NCBI GenBank assembly: GCA_036867785.1
Contig: CP145409.1
Location: 1,736,001-1,800,000 of the forward strand
DNA: 64,000 bases
DNA from: Plasmodiophora brassicae
Lineage: Eukaryota
Direction: 5' to 3'
Of the stretch, positions 35,064 to 62,516 are shown one piece after another; positions within the stretch are counted from its first letter, which is position 1, and every line of letters starts with the position of its first letter. The notes under the pieces are model-generated. The model saw nothing but the letters and a program-made list of their open reading frames with translations, was not told where the DNA came from and ran no database searches. Both the position numbers and the translations under genes were made by a program.

Positions 35064-35477
35064 CGCTAAGTGCAACCAACCGCCCCGCGAGTTACACTCT
35101 GTACGCCTGCGACGATCGCCCTGCTGGCATTACGGTACTTGTCACTATGTAATGCAACCTGGGAGCGCCACCTAATCGTTGTTATATTAGGGGCTGGCGT
35201 CGCCCATATTGATCGTACGCGACGGTACCTGCCTGCCGTCTAGCGACACAGGTACCAGCGTCGCGAGTTACGTTGGCCCCACGTGCAACGACCGTCGCTC
35301 TGCACAGCGTACGTGGCCCGACCGCACACGTTTCGCCCTGCACACGCGCCCGGCTGTCCTGCATCCAGCTGTTTCCAGGATGGCGATCGTTCGAGTATGG
35401 GCAGCAGATTCTCTCTGGAAATATCCCGGGCGCTCTCGTCAAATCCAGTGTATTGCGCTTGGGGCGTCGTCGGCGCC

Positions 35478-38159
35478 ATGGCCGACGGCAAGGACATCGC
35501 CACGATCTTCGCCGACGACTTCGGCGCCCGCCCGGCCCGCAACGTGCCCAGCTGGCTGTCGACGCAGATGTTCTCGGCGCCGTCGTCCGACGACGGCCTG
35601 TTCGACGGCCTGTCGGGCATCTCGGCCCACAACTCTGACGAGGACGAGGACGACGACACGTCCGACGACGGCCTGGGCAGCGAACACGAGTTCCAGTCGG
35701 GGCAGTTCGTCCCCGTTTCCCAGCACAGTCGGCACCGTGCCAGTGACGACGATGACGACGACGACGACGACGACGACGACGATCAAGACGACAGCAAAGT
35801 CGACAGCGCGAAGGCGACCGCGCCGCCCCTTCCAGAGAAGGACCATGGGCCGCTGGTCGATCAGGCGTTGCGGAAGGAGGCGCTCGTGGACGCGTTCTGG
35901 GACAAGACCAGCGTCGACGCGACGCCCGGGGAAGTTGCCGCCGAGCTCGACGATCCGGTCGGCAGCGAAACGGTAGCGGCGGCGGCGGCGCCCGGCCCCG
36001 TCGTCGTCGACGAGCTGGCGAACTCGAACATCCCGATCGACGTGCAGACCGTGCACCTGCTCCTGGCCCTGCAATCGCAGTACGTCAAGCTGCTGCGCGT
36101 CGTCGACCGGACGTACATTCGGGTGGCGCGCGCGTCCCACGCCCTGTCGAGGAAGCCGCGCGTCCTCGGCGACAACGAGATGGAGGCCATCTTCCTGAAC
36201 TGGAGCGACCTGCTGGCGGCGGCGATCGACCTGAAGCGCGCCATGCGCACCACGCGTCAGGCGGCGGGCCTGGACCCGGCCGCCGCCCTGTCTGGCCTGC
36301 TGGGCCACGTGCAGGCCCACCTGGCGTACCTGCGCCTGTACACGATCTTCGCCAGCGAGCACGTGTTCTCGATGAAGTCGCTGGAGGCCGCCATCCGCCG
36401 CCGGGTCGCGTTCGTCGACCTCATCGAGCTGAACGAGGCGTCGGACGGCATCATGTTCAAGGCGATGCTGGACCGCCCGCTGCGCCACTTCCAGGACCTG
36501 CGCGTTGTCGTCCACCGGTTCGTCGCGCTGGCGCCGCCGGCCGACCCGCTCGTCGCGACCGCCGAGCGCCTGGTCGGCAACCTGGCCAGCGCCGAGGAGC
36601 AGGTCAACCGCGAGGCGCTGCTGTCGGAGGCGCGGTCGCGCGTCATCTCGATCCAGGAGAAGCTGTTCAGCGGCAAGGTCAACCTGGTCTACCCGGGGCG
36701 GTACTGTGTGCGGTACGGCCCCCTGCAGAAGCTGACGACGGCGAACAAGAAGGACGGCGGCAAGGTCTACACGTTCTTCATGTTCGACGACCTGATCGTC
36801 GGCGCCGAGGGGCGCACCGGGCAGATGCGCGTCAAGTACGTCCTGGACCTGCAGGACATCAAGGTCAGCGAGAGCGCCGGCGGCGGGTCGTTCCACGTCG
36901 AGTCGCCGATCAAGTCGCTGCTGCTGGCCGGGTCCAGCGACGCCATCACGCAGTCGTGGATCGCCGACATTGTCGCCCACTCCAAGGCGCTGTCGCAGCG
37001 TCGCGGCCAGCATGGCGTGCGGAACCCGTTCACGCTCGACGAGCTCGTGCGCAACGATGCGGTTCGCGCCAGGTCCACTGTCGACGCCAGCCTCGAGGAG
37101 AGCCGCGACGTCATGCAGGCCGTGAAGCGCGACTGTGTCGACTCGTCGAACGCGAACACGTTCATGACGAACGACGAGGTCGCGGCCGAGCACCTGCCGG
37201 AATCGATGGGCGACGCGAAACAGTTCGATTCGGTCAGTATGGACAAGGCGGCGCCGGCGGACGACGCGGTCAAGACGGCGCTGCTGAAGATCCATGTGAC
37301 CGCCGCCGAGGCGCCGGAGGCGTCGCCCAGGCAGCGGATGGTGTCGCCGACGTCGTCGGACGCGGAGGCGGCGCCGGCCAGCTCGTCGAGCATGAAGAAG
37401 GCGACGATGCTGATGGGCATGGGCACGTCCGGCATGCTGGTCGGGTCCGGCGCCATGCAAGGGTACCTGAAGATGAAGGGGTCGACGTTCATGCAGCTGC
37501 AGTCCATGTTCTTCATGGTGAACGCGGCGAAACGCGAGCTGTGCAGCTGGAAGCTGAAGGCGGACGCGCAGCGGTCGTCGTCGCACCCGAAGAAGTCGAT
37601 CCCGCTGAAGGACGTCGTCGTGTTCCCGAGCGAGTCGGGCGAGGACGCCGCCTTCGAGCTGTACCACGCCGAGGCGAAGCGCCCGTTCGTGTTCATCGCC
37701 ACCGACCCGGGCAACCGGGACGCCTGGTGCGAGGCGCTGGCCAAGTTCAGGCAGGCGGACAGGACGATGGAGAACTTCTTCGAGAAGCGCGGCGGCGACC
37801 AGGGCACGAAGCCCTGGCGCCTGCGCTACTTTGTCATGCTCGAGACGCGGCGCGTCATCCTGTACTTCAATCGACGCCAGGTAGGACGCATGGGCGTTCC
37901 CAAACCGGGCCGGTGCTCAGCGTGTTGCCAACAGGATGCGGCCGGCCTGGACTGGCAGCTGAACGCCAACGGGTCGATCGACCTGACCGAGTGCTCGGCG
38001 CGGGCCATCGACCGGGCCGAGGCGCTGGAGAAGATGGGCCGGGAGTTCATCATGGAGGTGATCCCGAACAACACCCGGCGCCGGTTCTACATGGCCGGCG
38101 ACACCCAGCAGCTCGTCGACGAATGGGTCGGGCAGATCAGGAGGGTCGCCAGCCGCTAA
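35478..38159 (+). CDS. Dbl-family DH-PH protein with two additional C-terminal PH domains (in-frame intron 37881-37934)
   Basis: Acidic N-terminus; DH-like EAIFLNWSDL..YLRLY; PH (FFMFDDLIV...SWIADI); PH2 (MQGYLKMK...DAWCEAL); PH3 (FEKRG..WRLRYF...EWVGQI). Confidence 0.8.
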   Translation: MADGKDIATIFADDFGARPARNVPSWLSTQMFSAPSSDDGLFDGLSGISAHNSDEDEDDDTSDDGLGSEHEFQSGQFVPVSQHSRHRASDDDDDDDDDDDDDQDDSKVDSAKATAPPLPEKDHGPLVDQALRKEALVDAFWDKTSVDATPGEVAAELDDPVGSETVAAAAAPGPVVVDELANSNIPIDVQTVHLLLALQSQYVKLLRVVDRTYIRVARASHALSRKPRVLGDNEMEAIFLNWSDLLAAAIDLKRAMRTTRQAAGLDPAAALSGLLGHVQAHLAYLRLYTIFASEHVFSMKSLEAAIRRRVAFVDLIELNEASDGIMFKAMLDRPLRHFQDLRVVVHRFVALAPPADPLVATAERLVGNLASAEEQVNREALLSEARSRVISIQEKLFSGKVNLVYPGRYCVRYGPLQKLTTANKKDGGKVYTFFMFDDLIVGAEGRTGQMRVKYVLDLQDIKVSESAGGGSFHVESPIKSLLLAGSSDAITQSWIADIVAHSKALSQRRGQHGVRNPFTLDELVRNDAVRARSTVDASLEESRDVMQAVKRDCVDSSNANTFMTNDEVAAEHLPESMGDAKQFDSVSMDKAAPADDAVKTALLKIHVTAAEAPEASPRQRMVSPTSSDAEAAPASSSSMKKATMLMGMGTSGMLVGSGAMQGYLKMKGSTFMQLQSMFFMVNAAKRELCSWKLKADAQRSSSHPKKSIPLKDVVVFPSESGEDAAFELYHAEAKRPFVFIATDPGNRDAWCEALAKFRQADRTMENFFEKRGGDQGTKPWRLRYFVMLETRRVILYFNRRQVGRMGVPKPGRCSACCQQDAAGLDWQLNANGSIDLTECSARAIDRAEALEKMGREFIMEVIPNNTRRRFYMAGDTQQLVDEWVGQIRRVASR

Positions 38160-42123: not shown

Positions 42124-45100
42124 TTAGGGCGACGACCGGGACGCTGCTGCTGCCGCCGTCGGCGTAGTCGTGACGTACGCCTCGTCGTTGATCTTGTTCG
42201 CGTACTGCTGGAACAACCGAATGACCTGCGTGAACGACGGGCGCTCCGCCGGGTCGGGCTCGAAGCATCGCTCGATGACCGGTTTCCAGGACGAGCAGCG
42301 CGTGCAATCGTCCGGTAGGCCCGGGCGTTTCCCGTCGGCGAAGAACTCGCGAATGTTCCTCACCTGGAAATCGTTCCAGGGCACCTGCGCGCTAGCCACG
42401 AAGACGGCGACGACGCCGAACGCGTACACGTCGGCGGCCATGGTGTCGGCGCCCTGGTCGCCTTCCGGCGCCTCCAGCAGCAGCCGCTCGGGAGGGTAGT
42501 ACGCGGCGGCGCCGACGAACGGGTACTGCTTGATCAGCGGTTCGACGCGTCGCGGCAGGCCCACGTCGAACAAGCGAACCATCGGGCGCTCCCGTACGGC
42601 GACGAACACGTCCTTCACACGCAGGCGGCCATGGATCACCGACGGCGTCCTGGTGTGAAGGTACTCCATCGTCTCCGCGATCTGCAACACGATCGACAGG
42701 CGCACGTCGTCGTCTGACGACGGGTTAGGGGCTCGGGCGCGCACGAGGTCGCTTGCACGTACCCAGGTCGGCGTGGCGCTCCCGAATGTAATCGTCGAGT
42801 CGGGCGTGGTTCGGTTGTCGTCGATGGATGACGGATCGCGTCACCGGATCGACGCCCAGCGGTCGCTCAATGCATCGGTGGCGCAGCGAGGCGTAGTACT
42901 GTCTCCCAGACGGCGGGTTAGCACATGTGATGCGACACGACGACGACGCGATCAGGCGACCGACCTGCATGTCGTCCTTGAACCAAGCCGCCGATTGCTC
43001 CTTCTGCGCGTCGTTGAAGAACGACGGTACTGGGTACCTGGTGACCTGGACGGGCGCCTCGAGCCACACGCCGGGCCAGTCGACGCGTCCGCCGATGGCC
43101 AACGAGTTCTCCTCCTCCTCCTTCTCCAGCTGCGCCTGCTCGGTCAACGCTGGGCCTGTCGCCACGTCGACCTCGTTGTCGCTCCCGTCGCTGTCCGCCT
43201 TCGTCGTCGGTGACGTCGCATCCGACCCTTGCGTTGTTTCCGCTTCCCCATCTGACTCGCTGTCATCAGGTGGAGCCTTCCCCTTCTTCTTCTTGGCCGA
43301 GGACGTCCTCGACGCCGCGCCGTCGTCGTCGTCGGCCTCGCTGGTGCCCTCGTCGATGTTGTCCAAGGTCGGGCTGGCGACGCTCGCCTTCCTCGGAGAC
43401 GACAGCGCCTTCGTCAACGTCGCTGTGCGTTTCTTCTTCCGCCTGCCCTTCTTCCGGCGACGTTTCGCCCCGGGCGCCGCCGCGTCGAACCGCACGATCT
43501 CGTCGCGGGCGCTGATCTCCTGGAACGCGCCCGGTTGCCGCTCCCCAGGCACGTCGCCGTCGTCGTCGTACACGGCCCCGGATCTGTACGCGGCCGCCTC
43601 GCTGCTGTTCTCGAACAGGAGCATGCCGGGGACCTTCATCATGTCGACGACAAAGTACGGGCCGTCGTCGTCGAACGCGATCTCGGTCCAGCAGAAGTCG
43701 CAGGGCCATGGGTCGTCGACGCGATCCCAACCGGACCCGGAGCTGGGCCTCGACACGATCCTGCAGGACAGGGCCGTGTCCGACCCGCCGACCTTCGCCA
43801 GCAGGTACTTGAAGACGACGCTGCGCGTGCGCCCGATGCCGTACCCGGGCAGGAGCGCGCCCAGCGCCAGCACGTCGCTCCCCAGCTGGTTGCGAACGCG
43901 CTCCTGCTGGCCGCGCGACAGCGCCGCCTTGTCGGCCAGCGCCGTCCCGCCCAGCTCGCTGGCAACGAACATCGCCAGGGCGGCCACACGCGCTTTCACG
44001 TTCGGGAACGACGACGACGTCAGCGCCTGAGCGCGGGCGATCGCCCTACGAAGGCGCGGGTCGCGCCTGGCGTCCAGCGCGACCAGGGCACCCTGGATCG
44101 TGCCGATCGGGAAGTCGCGAGGGTCGACGACCTTGCCCCAGGCGAACGACGACGGCACCGCCGACACCGGGACGACGTCCGACGCGAAGTAGAACCCGTC
44201 GACGACGCTCTCGTCGCCGTTCAGGTACCCGAGCGCCTGCAACTTCTCGATCGGCCCGCGTACTCGCCGCTGGAACACCTTCAGGCCCTCGCGTATCGCC
44301 CCGTTCAGCTCGGCGTCGCGTTCGGCGAACGCCCTGCTCCCGAACGTCAGACGGTGTTGTGGGAACGCGCGCCAGATCTGACCTGGCGGAATGGCCTTGC
44401 TCGCCGACAGCGTCGACGTCGGCGCCCTGCTCGACGAGGAAGCGCAGGACCTGGGCGTGGTGCTTCCTGGCGGCGGCGATCGCGGGCGTGTTCCCGTTCG
44501 TGTCGGGCAGGCAGATCGAGGCGCCGCTGTCGACCAGCATGCGGACGACGTCGGCGTGGCCGTGCATCGACGCCTTCATGACCGGGGTGTGCCCGCTGAC
44601 GCCCGACACGTCGACGGGCAGGTTGCTGGACATGATGCGGTTCAGCAGGAGGCGGACGATGTCGGCGTGGCCGCGCTTCGAGGCGGCCGCCAGCGGCGTG
44701 CCGCGCTTCACGTTCGGCATGTCGATGACGGCGCCCCGGGCGAGCAGCAGCGACACCATGTCGACCTCGCCGAACATGCAGGCGGCGATCAGCGGCGTGA
44801 ACTTCGTCGTCGTCGGGTAGTTGATCTGCGACCCGTACTCGAGCAGCGCCAGGATCAGGTCCATGTTCCGCATCTTGCAGGCCATGACCAGCGGCGTCTC
44901 GCCGTTCTGTTCGGCCCACGTCAGCCGCCGCCCTACGAGCGACTTGTGCACACGGTGCGGTACCCGATTCGGGAGCTCCAGCTCGGCGCCTTCCTTCAGC
45001 AGCAGGTTGATGAAGTCCATGTTGCCGATGGAGCACGCCAGCGTCAGCGGCGTGTGGTCCCCGTCGGTCGGGTAGTTGATCTTGGCGCTGTTCGCCAGCA

Positions 45101-47063
45101 GCATCTTGACGAGCTTCATGTTCTGCTCGCGGATCGCGGTCAGCAGCGGCGTGTTGCCGTTCTTGGACCGGAAGTTCACGTCGGCCCCCTTCTGCAGCAG
45201 CAGCTCGATCAGGCGCGTGTGGTCCCGTTCGATCACGGCGATCAGCGGCGTGTCCCCGTTCTGCAGACGGCCGATCAGCGCGGCACTGCTTCGTCCCAAG
45301 GCAAGCCACGTCGACGTACCGCGCCCGGCGTGTGGATCAGCTCGCCGTAATCCTTCGCACAGATCAACAGGTACCGGACCATGTCCTCGAAGCCCTTCTC
45401 GCACGCCACGTGGAACGGCGAGTACCCTTCCTGTCCCCGAACGTTACCGTCTGGTCAAGGTCTTAACGCACACGCGGCGGTCCCCAACCTTGTGGAGGAA
45501 CATCCGGTTGACTTTCGTCTGGCCCCACTTGTTCAGGACGACCATCAGCGGCGTTAACCCTTTCTGGGGGAGGGGGTGGGCGCGCGGTCAGCCCAATGCG
45601 ATCAGGACGCGATGTGTCGACCCCCTTCGTACGTTGTCGCGGATGCGGGCGCATTCGGGCGCGACCTTGCAGATGTACTCGCAGACCTCCTGGTTCCATT
45701 CGCGCGCCGCCATGTGCATCGCCGTGAACCCCATCTCGTTCTTCAGGCACGGGTCGGCCTTGGCGGCCTCGATCAGGTACCGGAGGACGGCCTGCTGGTT
45801 CCAGATCGCCGCGACGATGACAGGCGTGTCGCCGTTCGCGTTCCTGGTGGACCCATTCGTTAACGGGACCGGGGGACACGACAAATACCGCCTGCACGCG
45901 CGGCACCACCCACCGAACGTTGACGTCGCAACGGCCCTTCTCGAACAGGAACTTGCAGATCTCTGCCTGGCCTGAGAAGGCGGCACAGTGGACGGGCGTG
46001 TCACCGCTGACGTTCTTCGGGTTCGGGTCCACCTGTCGTCGTGTTGACGGGCGCTGGTTTCGTGACAACAACAACGACAACGTGGGTGACCTGGGCGCCA
46101 TCGATCAGGTACTGCGTGGTCTCCAGGTGCCCGTTCGTCACCGCCAGATGCAACGGCGTGCACCCGTCCAGGCTCGCCGCGTTCGGGTCCACATGGCACT
46201 GCTTCACCAGGTACCTGGCGACCTCTGTGTGCCCATGCGCGCACGCCAAATGCAATGGCGTTCTGCGGGTGGTGTGTGCGTTCAGCCATCGTTAATGCTG
46301 GGACCTGCTCGATCCTCACCGCTTCCAGCGGTTGACCGACGCTGGGTTCAGTTTCGCTGTACCGCACAGGTAGACGAGGACGCTGAGGTGGCCGCGTGAC
46401 GCCGCGTGATGGGCGGCCGTGTTCCAGAACTGATCCTCGCAATGCGGGTCGACGCCCGCCTCCTCGTCCAGGAACTTGATCACGTCCAGGTGCCCACCGA
46501 ACGCTGCCAGATGGAACGCTGTATAGCTCCTCTGCAAACGATTGTCACGTTGCTGCCCTGCCAGTCGGATACGAAACAGCAGACCGCGTTACGAAGCGTC
46601 GGGTCAGGGTCGTACCGCTGCTGGAAGTATTTGACGATTTCGTAATGGCCTCTGGCGCACGCCAAATGGAACGGCGTGTTGCCATCCTGTCGAGGGTCAG
46701 CGGACCACAGCGCTGCCAGCACAGCGTATCGACCACCTTATCGACTGTAGCGATGCTGGCCTGCGCTTCTTCACAGAGGACCTTGCAGATGTCCAGGTAC
46801 CCGAGCTCAGCCGCCTGATGGATTGGCGTGCGATGCGACCCACGATGGCGCTGGTTCCCGAGGTTAAGACGCATCACACCGGGGGACGACACAACGAAGG
46901 GTACCTCTTGATGGTTTGCGTTCACGTTCTTGATAGCGAGTTCGCGCACACGCTCGAGTTCGCCTTTGCTGACGGCCTCGAACAGCAACCGGGTCGGAAG
47001 GACGACCTCGGTCTCGCTCGCCTTCTTTATGGCGCGGGCCGCCACCGCCCGTGCCGCCTCCAT
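42124..47063 (-). CDS. Large ankyrin-repeat + EDR1-like domain + TKL-type pseudokinase protein
   Basis: Many ankyrin repeats (GNTPFHLAC, GCTPLHLAV, GDTPLIA); intron 44334-44382 joins them in frame to DGFY...FVASELGG...RSVVFKYL..SCRIV...VVDMMKVPG; a further intron joins a kinase C-lobe (QIAETMEYLH, ADVYAFG, RCFEPDPAERPSF). Confidence 0.8.
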
Positions 47064-52937: not shown

Positions 52938-54599
52938 ATGGCAGCTATCGTCCCTGTGGGTATCGACGACAAACGTCGTCGGAGGCCGTGCTGCCAGCCA
53001 TCGTGCCGCAGGAAAGAACGCTCGGCCAGCGTCATAATCACCAGGAACCTTGAGCGCGATAGGCAACGCGAGGCTCGCGTCCCTCGCGTTTTATTCTTAG
53101 GATGCGGCGAAAGCGGCAAAGTACGTACCCGAGTGACGTTGTTCGGGATGATCCTGACGGTTTGTTTCGGCTAGTCGACGCTCTGCAAGCAGTTGAGGTT
53201 TCTGCATGGCGTACCATACCCGACGGGGGAGCTGGTTCAGTGCCGGGCCATGATCCACCAAATGGCGATTAACGATGTGTATCGCCTGGTCCTGGCGGCG
53301 TCGTCGGCCAGCGTTCGGGAGCGCCTGGGTGCGGGACTGGTGTTCCCACACAACGTCCAGAAAGCCATGTACAAGGTGCAGCAGTGGTCCATGGATGGGA
53401 TGCCCGAACGGCTCACCGACGATGTGGTCGCGTGTATCTACGCGATCTGGATGGATCCGGGCATCCGAAGGGTACTGCTTCGAATTAGGCTTCCGAAGAG
53501 AGCGGGGTTGAACCGTGAACAACAGGTCTATGATCACCGGGAACTGTTTCACATGTCGGAAAACGTCCAGCACTTCTTTGATAAGATCGCGACGATCGCT
53601 CTGCCTTCGTGGTTACCGAGCGAGATGGACATCCTGATCAGCAGGGTGAAGACGACCGGCATTCACGATGAGGTCATTGTCACGGAAGGCACCAGTTCAG
53701 TGTCCCTCGCCAAGTCGTACGAACGCCACTGAGGCTTACCATGAATGACAGTGATCCGGATTATCGACGTTGGCGGGCAACGCAGCGAGAGAAGGAAATG
53801 GCTGAACGCCTTATCCGACGTCCATGTCGTCATGTTTGTCGTCGCTGGATCCGGTATAAGTAGCAATGAATCGGTACGATGACCCATGCTGAACTCTGCC
53901 ATCCAGATTACGACTTGAAATGCGTGGAGGTTGGGGGTGATCTAGCGGCCACCATTCCACTGCGGTTCTGATGATGTGCCATTGTAGGACAACACGACTA
54001 ACAGGGCCCTGGAATCACTGGACGTATTCAAACAGGTTCGCGGGTGAACTGGGCCATGTCGGCCACTCTCTCCCTCTCCCTTAAACTCAGACGGGTATCG
54101 TTGCCCAGGTCTGCAAAGCGCCGTCACTTCGAGAAGCAGGGTGCGTACCCGGCCGGCTTTCGTCGCGTCTCAGACTCCACTTACGGTTTGATATATAGGC
54201 TGGTGGTTCTGTTCAACAAGACGGGTACGTCGTCGCGTGAGACAAACGCTCGCTCGGTATGGAAGCTCCCGTTGCAGACCTATTCAAGAAGAAGCTGAAG
54301 GGCGTGCCGTTCGGGGAGCATATGGCGGGTTACCGAGGCGATGGGTCGTTCGCGTCCGCGTCGCAGTACTACCGCGATCTATACCAGACCGCGTTCGACT
54401 CCGTTTGCGCCGAGCTCCACATCAAATCTCGACCGTTGAAGTACGACAGGGGACGATGCGGACACGTCGTGCGCGCTGAAACTATGACAGGTTCTACGAC
54501 ACGACGGCAATCGATAAGGATAATATCAAGCTGGTGTTCCATAGCGCTAAATCGTACATCCTGCAGCAGCTCCTGAGAGGCGTCCAGCTGCTTAAATAG
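52938..54599 (+). CDS. Heterotrimeric G-protein alpha subunit (about 9 introns)
   Basis: Spliced product has G1 LGCGESGKST, G2 RVKTTG, G3 DVGGQRSERRKW, G4 LFNKTD, G5 TTAID; ends ...GVQLLK*. Confidence 0.93.
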
Positions 54600-54682
54600 C
54601 CATATAATCGACTAAGGATTGATATCAGTCATCGGGATCGGTTCCTGGGAATATCTTGGTGGTGTCCTGTCGGAGGGCAACG

Positions 54683-56491
54683 ATGTCGGGCGGCGCTCTG
54701 GTGGCCCCCAGCAGGCAGGATAGCTCGGTGATGCAGATCCCGGCGGATTTGCACATGCTTAGCGCCGAAGCGATCTGCGACGCGTTCCTCGATAGCGAGG
54801 ACGTCTACGTCCAGCAGTGCCTACGGAACCTGGTGGATCATTTCGAGAGCCGTCTGCGGCACCATAACGAGGAGAACGCGCCCATCCTGACCGACGCCGA
54901 GATCGAAAACATATTCCTGAACGTCGGCAACATCTACCTCGTCAACAGGCGCCTGCATTCGGAACTGCTGAAGGCCAGGCTCAACGGGCGCCTCACGGAG
55001 CAATGCGGCCGGATCATGACGTCGATGATCCCGTACTTCAAGCTCTACGCCACCTATATCAACCGCCAGAAAGGCGCCATGCAACTAATGCAGTCGCTAC
55101 GAAAGCGCAAGGGCAAGTTCAACGAGTTCTGTGCGATCAGCGAGCGATGCGCCGGGCACCGCGTCGCCAAGCTGATGGAAGGGCCGATCTTTCGCCTACC
55201 GCAGTACCTCGTGTTCCTCGCTGCCTTGTACCAGAAACTCGATCCGGACGAAAACACGAGTCGCGAAGTGAAGAACGCGATCTTCGCCATCCAGCAGGTC
55301 ACCGACCACATCTCGGCGAACCTTCAGGACGACGCCCAGCGGAAGCTGGTTGTCAGGTTCCAGGAGAAAGTGTTCCGCGGTACTGTGGACCTCGTCAGCC
55401 CCTCGCGACTGGTGCTGAAGTACGGCGAGCTGGAGAAGTCGTTCCATAAGAAGTCGCGCCTGCACAAATCGAAGAAGTACCTGTTCGTCCTGTTCAATGA
55501 CATGCTGTTGTACGCGACGATCCGGACGCCGATCCAGCCGAGTCGCGTCAAACACGTCCTGCACCTGGCGGGCATGGCCGTTGCCGACATCCCAGAACGG
55601 GACAACAACCCGATCCACAACGCCTTCTACGTGAAGGCGTCAACGAAACCGGTGACACTGCAGGCGGCGACGTACGAAGAGAAGGTGGAGTGGATGGCGG
55701 CCATCAATAGCGCCATCGACAACTTCAACGTCATCCAGGCGGAACTATCAGGGCAACCTGTCCCCGCTGACGGCGTCGAATTCGAGAAGATGATCTTCAA
55801 GAAGAAGTTTAGGACCGTCATACAGCAGAGCACGAAACATCGGGAGCGAAGAGCGCAGAGCGTCATCGAACGCGAACCGTCCAAATCGCTGAGCGTTCGG
55901 CAGATGCCTGACCTTACGATGCCTCGTACTGCAAGAGCGCGATCACCAGGACCAGTGAAATCGCCAACCCCGGTGAAGTCGCCGACACCGGTACCTGATT
56001 CGCCGGAACCTTCCCGTGCAGAACAGGAACCTGCCTCCCCGGAGGCTGTACCGATTGCACCACCCGATGTTGGCATGCAGCAAGACATCTCTGAGGACGA
56101 CGATGACGATGAGGGACAAGGCGACGATATGGGCTCCCCGCCTGTGTATATACCAGAGGCGCCACCAGTCCCTGCAGTTGTCATTCCAGCGAATGACGGT
56201 TCTTCGGTCATGATGCGAAGGAATTCAGCGCCAAGCCCGTTGAGCCGGAGCCGAAGGCAGGCCAGTAACAACGTGGCGCAGCCGGAGAGGCCGGACGCGA
56301 ACGACCAGCTGCTGAAAGAAATTCAGGCCGGAAAGGCGCTGAGGAAGGTCGAGCACGTGGAACGGCGACCACCGACTCAGTCAAGATTCGAGACCGACCT
56401 TCATGCACAGCTACAGAAGTCCCTTGACCGATATCGAAAATTCGTCCAGAACGAGGACGACAGCGAAATCGAGTCTAGCGCCTGGGAGTAA
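54683..56491 (+). CDS. DH-PH RhoGEF with proline-rich region and C-terminal WH2-central-acidic (WCA/VCA) tail, intronless
   Basis: DH (FLDSEDVYV, IENIFLNV, PYFKLYATYI, PIFRLPQY); PH (YLFVLFNDMLLY...KVEWMAAI); tail LLKEIQAGKALRKV...LHAQLQKSLDRYR...EDDSEIESSAWE*. Confidence 0.88.
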   Translation: MSGGALVAPSRQDSSVMQIPADLHMLSAEAICDAFLDSEDVYVQQCLRNLVDHFESRLRHHNEENAPILTDAEIENIFLNVGNIYLVNRRLHSELLKARLNGRLTEQCGRIMTSMIPYFKLYATYINRQKGAMQLMQSLRKRKGKFNEFCAISERCAGHRVAKLMEGPIFRLPQYLVFLAALYQKLDPDENTSREVKNAIFAIQQVTDHISANLQDDAQRKLVVRFQEKVFRGTVDLVSPSRLVLKYGELEKSFHKKSRLHKSKKYLFVLFNDMLLYATIRTPIQPSRVKHVLHLAGMAVADIPERDNNPIHNAFYVKASTKPVTLQAATYEEKVEWMAAINSAIDNFNVIQAELSGQPVPADGVEFEKMIFKKKFRTVIQQSTKHRERRAQSVIEREPSKSLSVRQMPDLTMPRTARARSPGPVKSPTPVKSPTPVPDSPEPSRAEQEPASPEAVPIAPPDVGMQQDISEDDDDDEGQGDDMGSPPVYIPEAPPVPAVVIPANDGSSVMMRRNSAPSPLSRSRRQASNNVAQPERPDANDQLLKEIQAGKALRKVEHVERRPPTQSRFETDLHAQLQKSLDRYRKFVQNEDDSEIESSAWE

Positions 56492-56916
56492 TCATAAGTC
56501 AGTATACTACGGCTAATTAATCGGTATTCTCCTGGCAGGATCGCCATGCCAACCAGTGAACCTTCTAGGCCGGCCTCTGGAACAGCTGGGCGCGGTAGAA
56601 TCGGGCGGCCCAAGACTGTTGAAGCGTTGCGCACCACCGTTTCTAGACGGGGACTTATTTCATTCGCACGTGACCTGTTTGGTCCACAGCCTTCCATATC
56701 CGCTGCTGTCCGTTTTAAAGGACCCCCCTTGCCCGTATAATCTTCTGAGAATGTTCGGCAAGTCCATAGCAAACTAGAGTGTCTAGCACTGCAAGCTCGT
56801 AATAGCTGTTCATTCTGCGGCGGGCCCGTGTCCGCGATCTGGAATGTTCATGTTTCCCCTGCATCGTTGGTGATTCAGATCTTGTCCACCACCAGTCCAC
56901 CACAACGTCTGTTCTC

Positions 56917-56970
56917 ATGTTGAACATCGTCCATATGTTGAACATCGCCTATATGTTGAACATCGTCAAT
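56917..56970 (+). repeat. 18-bp tandem repeat x3 (ATGTTGAACATCGYCNAT)
   Basis: atgttgaacatcgtccat / atgttgaacatcgcctat / atgttgaacatcgtcaat. Confidence 0.9.
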
Positions 56971-57469
56971 ATCTTCGACATGAAATATTGGCCACCAATG
57001 GATGCGGCCACACTTGGCCGTCGTATTGTGGCGAGCTCGATCGTATCCGTCTACTCTGCGTCTCTGCGCCGTTGGTCGTGACGGAATTCGCGACAACGCT
57101 TGTCTTCAACGGCATGGCTGACAACCATACTTCGTCGGTCTCGTACGTGGCACGAGTCGCCTGCAACCTGCTGCTACTTAGTCTGTGCACGTGCCATCAA
57201 CGATGCCCTCATCAATCGTGGGCACTGATCACGGATTGGGACCTGCTGAGAACCGACGGCACAAGAAGACCTGCCTATTACGCTGTCAGGACGATCAGAT
57301 CGCGCTTGCCCGCCAAGGTGTCACTCTGCGCTCGGCTCTGCTGCACAGCAACCGTCAGCGATGGCACTGGCCGCAACGGCCGGCATCAACGTCACGGTCG
57401 GCATCGTCAATTACGCGCCACCCAGCAACACCAGACGGCAAATGCAGCGCTCGAAAAGTTGTGTTGCCC

Positions 57470-61214: not shown

Positions 61215-62516
61215 ATGTCGATGAAGGCTGGCCTTGGATTGCGATACACGCTGGGTGGTGCGTTGCTGCTCGTTATCCCACCTGTGTTCGTCCATTTACT
61301 GTGGTATACGAATGCGCACCTGAACGGTTCGTTGCTGGCGCTGGTGAACGCCGTGCAACGGTACGGTCTGGCGAGCGTGCTGAAGCGCGCGATCCCGACA
61401 CCGTTTGACCCGGCCGCATGGCGTATTATTTCGACGTATGCCATCGTGCAGATGACGTTGATGACGCTAGTCCCCGGTCGCGTGTTCAAAGGCCCCGTCA
61501 CGCCAATGGGTAACGTTCCCGTCTACAAAGCCAATGGCGTCCAGTGCTTCTTTGCAAGCGTTGCGTTGTTCATTGCAGGTGCGGCTTATGGCTTGTACCC
61601 CGGATCAATTGTGTACGACCATGCCGGGCACCTACTGTCGTCCATGAACGTACTCGCGTTGGCATTCTGCCTGGTGCTGTACCTGAAAGGGATCGTTGCG
61701 CCCTCGTCGACGGACTCGGGCATGTCTGGCAACGTCATCTTCGACTACTTCTGGGGCACAGAGCTCTACCCGCGCATTGCATCCGTTGACGTGAAGATGT
61801 TCACGAACTGTCGATTCGGGATGGTGTTCTGGGCGATCGGCCCGATCTCGTACATGTTCTGGCAGCACGCCCGTTTCGGATACGTCGCCAACTCATTAGC
61901 AATCAGCGTCGCTCTCCAGCTCATCTACGTGACGAAGTTCTTCGTCTGGGAGACGGGGTACCTGGCGTCCATGGACATCATGCATGATCGCGCCGGCTAC
62001 TATATCTGCTGGGGCTGCCTGGTGTTCCTACCCGTCGTGTATACGTCGCAGGCCTATTACCTGGCGTCGCACCCGATCCAGCTGAGCACGCCGTTGGCCA
62101 CTGCGATCTTCGTTGCGGGATTGGCGTGCATCTGGCTGAACTACGATTGCGATCGGCAGCGCAAGCGCTTCCGAGAGAGTCGTGGGAACAGCCTCGTCTG
62201 GGGTCGTCCTGCCGAGTACATCACAGCGCGTTACACTGCTGGAGATGGGACCGCCCATGAATCCTTGCTGCTCTGCTCCGGATGGTGGGGCGTGTCTCGC
62301 CACTTCCATTACATCCCGGAGGTGCTGGCATCTTTCTTCTGGAGCCTGCCGGCGTTGTTCAACCACTTCATGCCGTACCTGTACACAGTCTACCTCGCCA
62401 TCCTGCTGGCTGATCGGGCGATCCGCGACGAAAAGCGCTGTCGTGACAAGTACGGCAAGGATTGGGACAAGTACTGCGCTCGCATCCCCTATTACGTCAT
62501 CCCATATGTCTTCTAA
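61215..62516 (+). CDS. DHCR7: 7-dehydrocholesterol reductase (sterol delta-7 reductase, ERG4/ERG24 family)
   Basis: GPVTPMGNVPVYKANG, DYFWGTELYPRI..DVKMFTNCRFGM, WETGYLASMDIMHDRAGYYICWGCLV, LLCSGWWGVSRHFHY, RDEKRCRDKYG; exact start uncertain. Confidence 0.92.
   Translation: MSMKAGLGLRYTLGGALLLVIPPVFVHLLWYTNAHLNGSLLALVNAVQRYGLASVLKRAIPTPFDPAAWRIISTYAIVQMTLMTLVPGRVFKGPVTPMGNVPVYKANGVQCFFASVALFIAGAAYGLYPGSIVYDHAGHLLSSMNVLALAFCLVLYLKGIVAPSSTDSGMSGNVIFDYFWGTELYPRIASVDVKMFTNCRFGMVFWAIGPISYMFWQHARFGYVANSLAISVALQLIYVTKFFVWETGYLASMDIMHDRAGYYICWGCLVFLPVVYTSQAYYLASHPIQLSTPLATAIFVAGLACIWLNYDCDRQRKRFRESRGNSLVWGRPAEYITARYTAGDGTAHESLLLCSGWWGVSRHFHYIPEVLASFFWSLPALFNHFMPYLYTVYLAILLADRAIRDEKRCRDKYGKDWDKYCARIPYYVIPYVF

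Follow-up and report, generated by a model that had tools for sequence, protein, structure and literature searches.

A predicted RhoGEF-WCA fusion protein of Plasmodiophora brassicae and its relatives in Rhizaria

To our knowledge, Rho GTPases reach the Arp2/3 complex via separate proteins in all systems studied so far: a guanine nucleotide exchange factor (GEF), the GTPase itself and either WASP or the WAVE complex. The WASP-family class I nucleation-promoting factors (NPFs), i.e. WASP/N-WASP, SCAR/WAVE, WASH, WHAMM/JMY, WAWH and WAML, carry a C-terminal proline-rich region followed by a WH2 motif, a central (C) segment and an acidic (A) end with a tryptophan, and the GTPase acts on these NPFs from outside. 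Here we describe a gene of Plasmodiophora brassicae whose product, P0001, has a C-terminus of similar organization (WH2, C and A, together WCA), whereas its N-terminal head is a RhoGEF unit composed of a Dbl-homology (DH) and a pleckstrin-homology (PH) domain. The GTPase activator would thus be part of the predicted NPF itself. The gene is located in a stretch of 64,000 nucleotides (assembly GCA_036867785.1, contig CP145409.1, positions 1,736,001 to 1,800,000 of the forward strand), which is referred to as the window and to which all nucleotide positions relate.

The subfamilies of WASP proteins are defined by the domains that lie beyond the shared proline-rich and VCA parts (verprolin-homology, central and acidic, corresponding to WCA), and WAML, in which an IMD domain is joined to a VCA, illustrates that lineage-specific N-terminal domains can be combined with this module (Kollmar 2012, PMC3298513). 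By the convention of Kollmar 2012 (PMC3298513), the protein described here would be a new subfamily with a DH-PH head, as judged from its sequence. Its N-terminal part is similar to the Dbl-family RhoGEFs FGD5/6, FARP1/2, ECT2, intersectin and Asef, with a full-length DH domain directly followed by a PH domain and with the DH core residues in place. We know of no WCA in any of these proteins. The arrangement also resembles two-protein GEF-NPF couples in that a DH-PH GEF is joined to a WCA and that GTPase loading and Arp2/3 activation would be co-located; the long form of intersectin (intersectin-l), for example, is coupled with N-WASP. Another couple of this kind is GxcM-Fbp17/RacC-WASP of Dictyostelium (PMC10072221). 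In such couples the separate proteins are connected by SH3/proline-rich or adaptor contacts, whereas the connection is covalent in P0001. Arpin and other acidic-tryptophan ligands of Arp2/3 share the acidic C-terminus with a tryptophan beside the end. Arpin, which inhibits Arp2/3 via this tail, has neither a WH2 motif nor a C helix, whereas all three elements are present in most members of the RhoGEF-WCA family.

P0001 is encoded by a single uninterrupted reading frame at the position given in an initial annotation of the window, and all sequence strings quoted there were located in the protein (residues 426–438, 491–497, 543–556, 573–588 and 589–602). The features of the gene and its product are listed in Table 1. 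The same annotation had called the gene intronless. This is in agreement with the continuous DH-PH match and with the unspliced contigs of RNA runs that lie on the gene, and it goes beyond them at positions 54890–55108 and 55701–56016, where no contig was found.

For the transcript analysis, contigs from four runs presumed to be RNA (X15, X16, X17 and X18) were placed on positions 54000–57000. X17 shows three GT..AG joints of 53–73 nt in the gene upstream and X16 shows one joint there; because of these joints both runs were treated as spliced RNA. The contigs of X15 and X18 contain no spliced joints. On the RhoGEF-WCA gene, contigs free of joints cover positions 54658–54889, 55109–55357, 55164–55527, 55448–55700, 56017–56399 and 56371–56669. 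Contigs of the two joint-showing runs span 56050–56264 and 56371–56669, with no joint and no difference from the window, and the contigs of X15, X16 and X18 are identical to the window sequence. RNA-run contigs, being joint-free and identical in this way, thus carry the tail and the stop codon, plus some 180 nt downstream of it, as they stand in the genome. The tail region of the gene is transcribed, with the contigs revealing neither the strand nor the expression level. The GC content is ~57% around the gene and about 52–67% across the window.

The tail of P0001 comprises the three elements of a WCA in the usual order. A WH2 motif (LLKEIQAGKALRKV) of the form LLxxI...LRKV coincides with a helix predicted for residues 540–548. 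It is followed by the C segment (LHAQLQKSLDRYRKFV), for which a helix of residues 568–589 was predicted with a pLDDT (predicted local distance difference test) of about 80. This helix contains three spaced leucines (L573-xxx-L577-xxx-L581), a D-R-Y-R-K stretch (R583/R585/K586) and F587-V588. According to Kollmar 2012 (PMC3298513), a C region generally consists of three large hydrophobic residues three residues apart, a doublet or triplet of Arg/Lys and a further large hydrophobic residue; the C helix of P0001 complies with this rule. The protein terminates in NEDDSEIESSAWE, and its acidic end (QNEDDSEIESSAWE) is disordered in the AlphaFold2 model.

An alignment of 15 family tails (alignment A2), which also served as the tail profile, revealed L553 (within LRKV), L577, L581 and R585 as invariant and I547, S580, V588 and W601 as nearly invariant. 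The amphipathic central helix and the acidic end with a penultimate tryptophan (Trp601), both proposed in the initial annotation, are well founded: the former is a predicted helix with invariant L577, L581 and R585 and the general C pattern, and the latter holds a tryptophan that is kept almost throughout the 15 tails. The WH2-like motif proposed there stands as far as its LLxxI...LRKV form and the match of the family profile to N-WASP are concerned, and falls short of the Pfam gathering score.

A search of 177,635 distinct PDB sequences with the P0001 tail alone (74 residues) returned N-WASP and three WAVE1 chains as the top four matches. The WAVE1 alignment is colinear from the WH2 motif to the terminal tryptophan (WAVE1 residues 492–557 of 559). 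With the 15-tail profile, N-WASP was matched with E-values of 8.1e-16, 8.5e-13 and 3.1e-11. In the Arp2/3-bound N-WASP chain of PDB entry 6uhc (6uhc_H), profile positions 6–72 were aligned to residues 423–490 with W, C and A colinear (domain E-value 5.8e-6). The names of 17 of the 18 tail-profile matches in the PDB at E ≤ 1 are, as we take it, those of WH2-bearing proteins. A word search with the tail only in a set of 5.8 billion proteins, restricted to near lengths, gave 11 candidates, none of them at E ≤ 0.1, word indexing being of limited reach for a 75-residue query. Structure neighbours of the tail in a language-model atlas were unrelated helical proteins below the bar and were not used. 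Judged by these profile matches and alignments, the tail is a genuine WCA module of the WASP-family type, predicted to bind actin and Arp2/3.

The DH-PH assignment of the initial annotation was corroborated by Pfam, with both domains scoring above their cut-offs (Table 1; the cut-off of PF00621 is 27.6 bits, and profile positions 5–179 of 180 are matched). Among 20 family members the DH core residues E39 and Y175 are invariant and Y42, R171, Q174 and L176 nearly so; we assume that they belong to the CR1 (Glu) and CR3 (Arg/Gln/Tyr) motifs. The nearest PDB sequences to the DH-PH part are those of FGD6, FARP2, ECT2, FGD5 and intersectin. An AlphaFold2 model of P0001 calculated from the 20-member family alignment has a mean pLDDT of 73.4, and its DH-PH part is confidently folded (pLDDT > 90). 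The top Foldseek matches of this model are solely DH-PH tandems, namely Asef (the best match, E-value 5.5e-14), collybistin-Cdc42, Ephexin4, FARP2, intersectin-Cdc42, P-Rex1-Rac1 and Vav1. By homology and model the N-terminus is a Dbl-type RhoGEF with presumed exchange activity. Apart from two weak and unrelated matches, a Pfam scan of P0001 down to an E-value of 10 listed RhoGEF, PH-type models and WH2, and none of the WH1, CRIB/GBD, WHD, WAHD, WMD/coiled-coil and IMD heads. Since a subfamily-specific head domain is missing, P0001 falls outside the named subfamilies WASP, WAVE, WASH, WHAMM/JMY and WAML.

The fusion of the two parts recurs in other proteins. A word search of the 5.8-billion-protein set yielded nine relatives, three of them with the tail (36–40% identity in DH-PH). 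An exhaustive phmmer search of 1.84 billion representative proteins gave 2,845 matches at E ≤ 1e-3. Among the best 150 of these, at least 24 have a C+A tail, 21 by a strict rule and three (P0027, P0051 and P0073) by eye. Lack of conservation of the tail in orthologs had been named at the outset as an observation that would speak against the proposed Arp2/3 activator; the tail is kept in homologs with 23–42% DH-PH identity.

For 28 family members the tail elements were counted individually. The three spaced hydrophobic residues of C are found in 24/28, and within the last five residues there is a tryptophan in 23/28 and a phenylalanine in 4/28. At least one WH2 motif was recognized by a regular expression in 22 of the 28 and two motifs in four. 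An initial strict expression for the C motif matched 7/28 members, and a looser combined rule (C helix plus acidic-aromatic end) was used instead. This rule applies to 23/28 family members and to 0/132 other stored proteins, most of which are other RhoGEFs. In a Pfam census of 20 members RhoGEF was found in 20, PH in 15, WH2 in 10 (E ≤ 0.01, best E-value 2e-12) and WW in 7; the WH2 motif of P0006 scores 24.2 bits, above the Pfam gathering score. The tail profile matched 12 proteins among longer proteins, nine of which carry PF00621, while the other three are fragments of 143–211 residues. Canonical WASP and WAVE proteins are absent from these matches, which were limited by word sharing and are uninformative on distance. 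The closest relatives of P0001 (P0002, P0003 and P0012, 56–65% identity) are fragments ending before any tail.

Trees were calculated for the DH-PH part from 138 of 159 matched proteins; the 21 others had fewer than 250 matched DH-PH profile positions and were dropped. In the FastTree tree all 25 of the 25 tail-bearing rows fall into one clade of 48 rows with a support of 100, compared to 0 of the 90 rows outside. The tail label requires 13 changes on this tree, against a mean of 23.4 after shuffling, and none of 500 shuffles was as low. A quick IQ-TREE run (LG+G4) on 83 rows, from which the long row P0078 was excluded, placed the remaining 47 rows of this clade on one side of a branch with an SH-aLRT support of 99. 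An organism name was available for 8 of the 20 tail-bearing representatives that were looked up, and all eight are Rhizaria. The named members include Mataza sp. D1, Nonionella stella (three proteins), Paulinella micropora, Paulinella chromatophora and Leptophrys vorax; the remaining 12 of 20 are metagenome or Logan proteins. As judged from the trees and the names, this is an old family, so far seen only in Rhizaria, with a single origin of the fusion and its subsequent retention.

The DH-PH proteins P0087, P0098, P0105, P0131 and P0047 constitute the sister group of the WCA clade. All of these except P0047 end in a WW-domain-like stretch. A WH2 motif (LLASIRAGTKLKKV) is also present in P0087, which lacks the C+A end.

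Head and tail of P0001 are connected by a disordered linker, whose sequence is unconserved in the family alignment. It contains the motif KSPTPV twice, the string KSPTPVKSPTPVP (residues 426–438), an acidic patch (SEDDDDDEGQGDD), a PPVY motif and PEAPPVP (residues 491–497). The Pro/Ser-rich character ascribed to it in the initial annotation is present and the quoted strings are confirmed, but it is modest: 28 Pro and 20 Ser per 163 residues, i.e. 17% Pro, without a long poly-proline run. Relatives such as P0006 have long poly-proline tracts plus WW domains. The WW domains, found in 7/20 family members, are located between PH and WCA, and there is none in P0001. The PPVY motif is of the PPxY type (positions 56138–56149, residues 486–489). 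P0001 may have lost a WW domain and kept a WW-ligand-like motif, or PPVY may have arisen by chance.

The reading of these data that we favour, with a probability of roughly 0.65, is that the RhoGEF is recruited to a membrane and charges a Rac/Cdc42-like GTPase there, while actin delivery and Arp2/3 activation are performed at the same place by the WCA that it carries. The PH domain together with the contact between DH-PH and the GTPase would position the protein at the membrane, where the DH domain would put GTP onto the Rac/Cdc42-like GTPase. There the WH2 motif would also supply monomeric actin, and Arp2/3 would be bound and activated by the C helix together with the acidic tryptophan end, so that a branch would start. 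The relay from GEF via Rho GTPase and WASP/WAVE to Arp2/3 would in this way be partly hard-wired in one polypeptide, its first and last steps being fused. Local GTPase in the GTP-bound state could bring in further effectors and thereby give rise to positive feedback. In addition, the tail may fold back onto DH-PH as a form of autoinhibition. All seven Arp2/3 genes have been described for chlorarachniophytes and foraminifera (Krabberod 2017, PMC5455982), and high copy numbers of Dbl, DOCK and Rho genes for Rhizaria in a survey of 175 genomes (Fort and Blangy 2017, PMC5499878).

Several observations weigh against this proposal. The WH2 motif of P0001 (Pfam match at residues 538–557) scores 19.9 bits, below the gathering score of 23.1 (E-value 5.9e-4), and four family members (P0004, P0005, P0030 and P0040) have C and A without a recognizable WH2, which is therefore dispensable for the role of the tail there. 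The last 20 residues of P0001 include six Asp/Glu, the minimum in the family and shared with P0164, whose end looks cut; all others have 8–13. With the single tail as query the E-values were weak (0.034–0.078 overall and 0.05–0.08 for WAVE1), and the family C motif SLxxYRKFV is family-specific and unlike those of WASP and WAVE. The linker of P0001 is devoid of the long poly-proline tracts that usually feed profilin-actin. In the 48-row clade 23 rows are without the tail. For the most part they are no longer than 480 residues, end in poly-proline or show degenerate C-like motifs; most of them are probably cut gene models, and real tail losses are possible in some. The restriction of the family to Rhizaria is provisional, with names on 8 of 20 members. 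A literature search for Plasmodiophora brassicae together with Arp2 gave nothing informative on the presence of Arp2/3.

Docking of the tail onto DH-PH, which bears on the autoinhibition considered above, also belongs with these points. It was rated as 'weak support' with a score of 0.50 (0.50, 0.50 and 0.01 in the individual runs), compared to 0.00 for the best control. The runs share at least 46% of their contacts, and the partner pLDDT is at least 41. In the calibration of the docking procedure, 51 of the 78 solved complexes attain its mark, as do 2 of 108 mismatched pairs; at scores of 0.60 or less it is attained by only 5 of the 78 and by all four passing mismatches of 180. By this calibration the docked model is a weak hint that autoinhibition of this kind is possible. 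A more far-reaching version, in which WCA and DH-PH lock each other and the membrane, the GTPase or Arp2/3-actin switches both, so that Rhizaria would have an NPF subfamily of their own, is tentative, and we would put its chances well below even.

The docking result, together with the four members lacking WH2 and the short acidic end of P0001, could also be explained by a tail that binds Arp2/3 and/or actin and mainly targets or regulates the protein instead of activating Arp2/3. It might tether the GEF to branched networks, compete with activators as Arpin does, or act as an intramolecular lid on the GEF that is released by Arp2/3 or actin. Autoinhibited GEFs do occur among the top fold matches (Asef 2pz1, collybistin 4mt6 and Vav1 3ky9). 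An inhibitor or a lid would have no need of a WH2, however, and this motif is retained in the large majority of members as counted above, in four of them even in duplicate. Order and spacing of W, C and A match those of Arp2/3-bound N-WASP in 6uhc, and the invariant arginine and hydrophobic residues in C correspond to the signature of activators described in Kollmar 2012 (PMC3298513). We regard a mainly targeting or regulatory tail as unlikely.

A tail that binds actin monomers only, by means of WH2 and the helix and with no role for Arp2/3, is considerably less probable still. As a RhoGEF, P0001 would then sequester G-actin, deliver it or, like multi-WH2 proteins, nucleate filaments on its own. 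In the PDB the profile does match most strongly in its WH2 part, the matches there also comprising the WH2 chains of Spire, WIP, MIM and INF2, and the language-model atlas sets the tail near clusters of WH2-bearing fragments (0.87, 176/256 shared features), which serves as a lead only. A lone WH2, on the other hand, does not nucleate by itself, and a penultimate tryptophan in an acidic run marks binding to Arp2/3. The most conserved columns are those of C and A and not those of WH2 (L577, L581 and R585 are invariant and W601 nearly so), and some members without WH2 keep C and A. The acidic run with the penultimate tryptophan is likewise given as the mark of Arp2/3 binding in Kollmar 2012 (PMC3298513).

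The whole architecture might finally be an artefact, with the resemblance arising by coincidence or with two adjacent genes wrongly joined in the assembly or by read-through. The gap in the RNA-run contigs at 55701–56016 lies between PH and the tail, and the closest relatives are fragments that stop ahead of the tail. Against this, the frame is one unbroken reading frame, and five named rhizarian genera show the same architecture in proteins derived from transcriptomes, as do many metagenome proteins. PF00621 is present in all tail-profile matches among longer proteins apart from the three fragments, the family profile matches N-WASP at E-values of 8e-16 to 3e-11, and none of the 132 other stored proteins conforms to the tail rule. 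We consider an artefact very improbable.

We found no published description of a protein combining DH-PH and WCA, with supplementary tables and automatic domain-architecture databases lying outside the scope of this search. In Kollmar 2012 (PMC3298513) the terms RhoGEF and GEF occur zero times; the same applies to WH2, WASP and Arp2 in the main text of Fort and Blangy 2017 (PMC5499878). Krabberod 2017 (PMC5455982) has no RhoGEF or WH2 wording. The view of the initial annotation that the architecture lies outside the named NPF classes is in line with these results, as it is with the lack of any named head domain in P0001. The family apparently represents an undescribed, Rhizaria-wide, WASP-family-like subfamily that would couple the loading of Rho GTPases to the activation of Arp2/3.

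Table 1. Position and supporting evidence of the features discussed for the window.
Feature	Residues	Position	Strand	Evidence or remarks
Whole reading frame P0001, RhoGEF-WCA fusion protein	602 plus stop	54683..56491	+	ATG start
DH (Dbl-homology, RhoGEF) domain	35-210	54785..55312	+	Pfam PF00621, 93 bits
PH domain	246-345	55418..55717	+	Pfam PF00169, 37.6 bits (cut-off 25.1)
Disordered Pro/Ser-rich linker	376-538	55808..56296	+	pLDDT <50 over most of the stretch
WH2 (V/W) motif LLKEIQAGKALRKV	543-556	56309..56350	+	Sub-threshold Pfam WH2, family profile
Central (C) amphipathic helix LHAQLQKSLDRYRKFV	573-588	56399..56446	+	Conservation, model, N-WASP alignment
Acidic (A) end QNEDDSEIESSAWE, Trp601 penultimate	589-602	56447..56488	+	Trp conservation
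Second RhoGEF, P0011	920	35397-38159	+	Asp-rich N-terminus, two PH stretches
Upstream gene, G-protein alpha subunit-like		53250-54598	+	Reading-frame fragment, 47.5 bits (cut-off 48.8)
RGS-domain protein, IQUB-like flagellar-type protein, two ankyrin-repeat proteins, ERG4/ERG24 sterol reductase		3949-6795, 22052-23581, 44046-45119, 61215-62516		Sterol reductase 268.7 bits

In P0011, the second RhoGEF of the window, the DH domain is matched weakly, at 24.9 bits and under the threshold, and there is no WCA-like tail. In the G-alpha-like gene directly upstream of the RhoGEF-WCA gene, three introns in an RNA contig set apart micro-exons with lengths of about 34 nt (54106–54139) and 26 nt (54198–54223). 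One X16 contig skips 54 nt at positions 54277–54332, with CT..AC ends that correspond to GT..AG on the minus strand, and an X17 contig reads straight across 54277–54412. The skip could be due to an antisense transcript or to alternative splicing. Downstream of the RhoGEF-WCA gene, contigs of X15 (from 56785) and X16 (from 56723) have about 4–8 times the word depth of the contigs on the gene itself, which suggests a more abundant neighbouring transcript at positions 56723–57000 and beyond.

Foraminifera, filose and reticulose amoebae and plant-infecting forms all belong to Rhizaria, a group whose actin regulators have hardly been studied. With a conserved natural protein that fuses the first step of the relay from Rho GTPases to Arp2/3 to its last, the few class I NPFs would be joined by a new subfamily. 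Such a protein would offer a compact example of a signal and an actuator that are hard-wired to each other, and it would give a handle on the building of pseudopods in Rhizaria. If head and tail do lock each other, the protein would constitute a self-contained positive-feedback unit for branched actin of the pseudopod type, and the wiring from Rho to Arp2/3 would be unlike that of animals, fungi, plants and amoebozoans.

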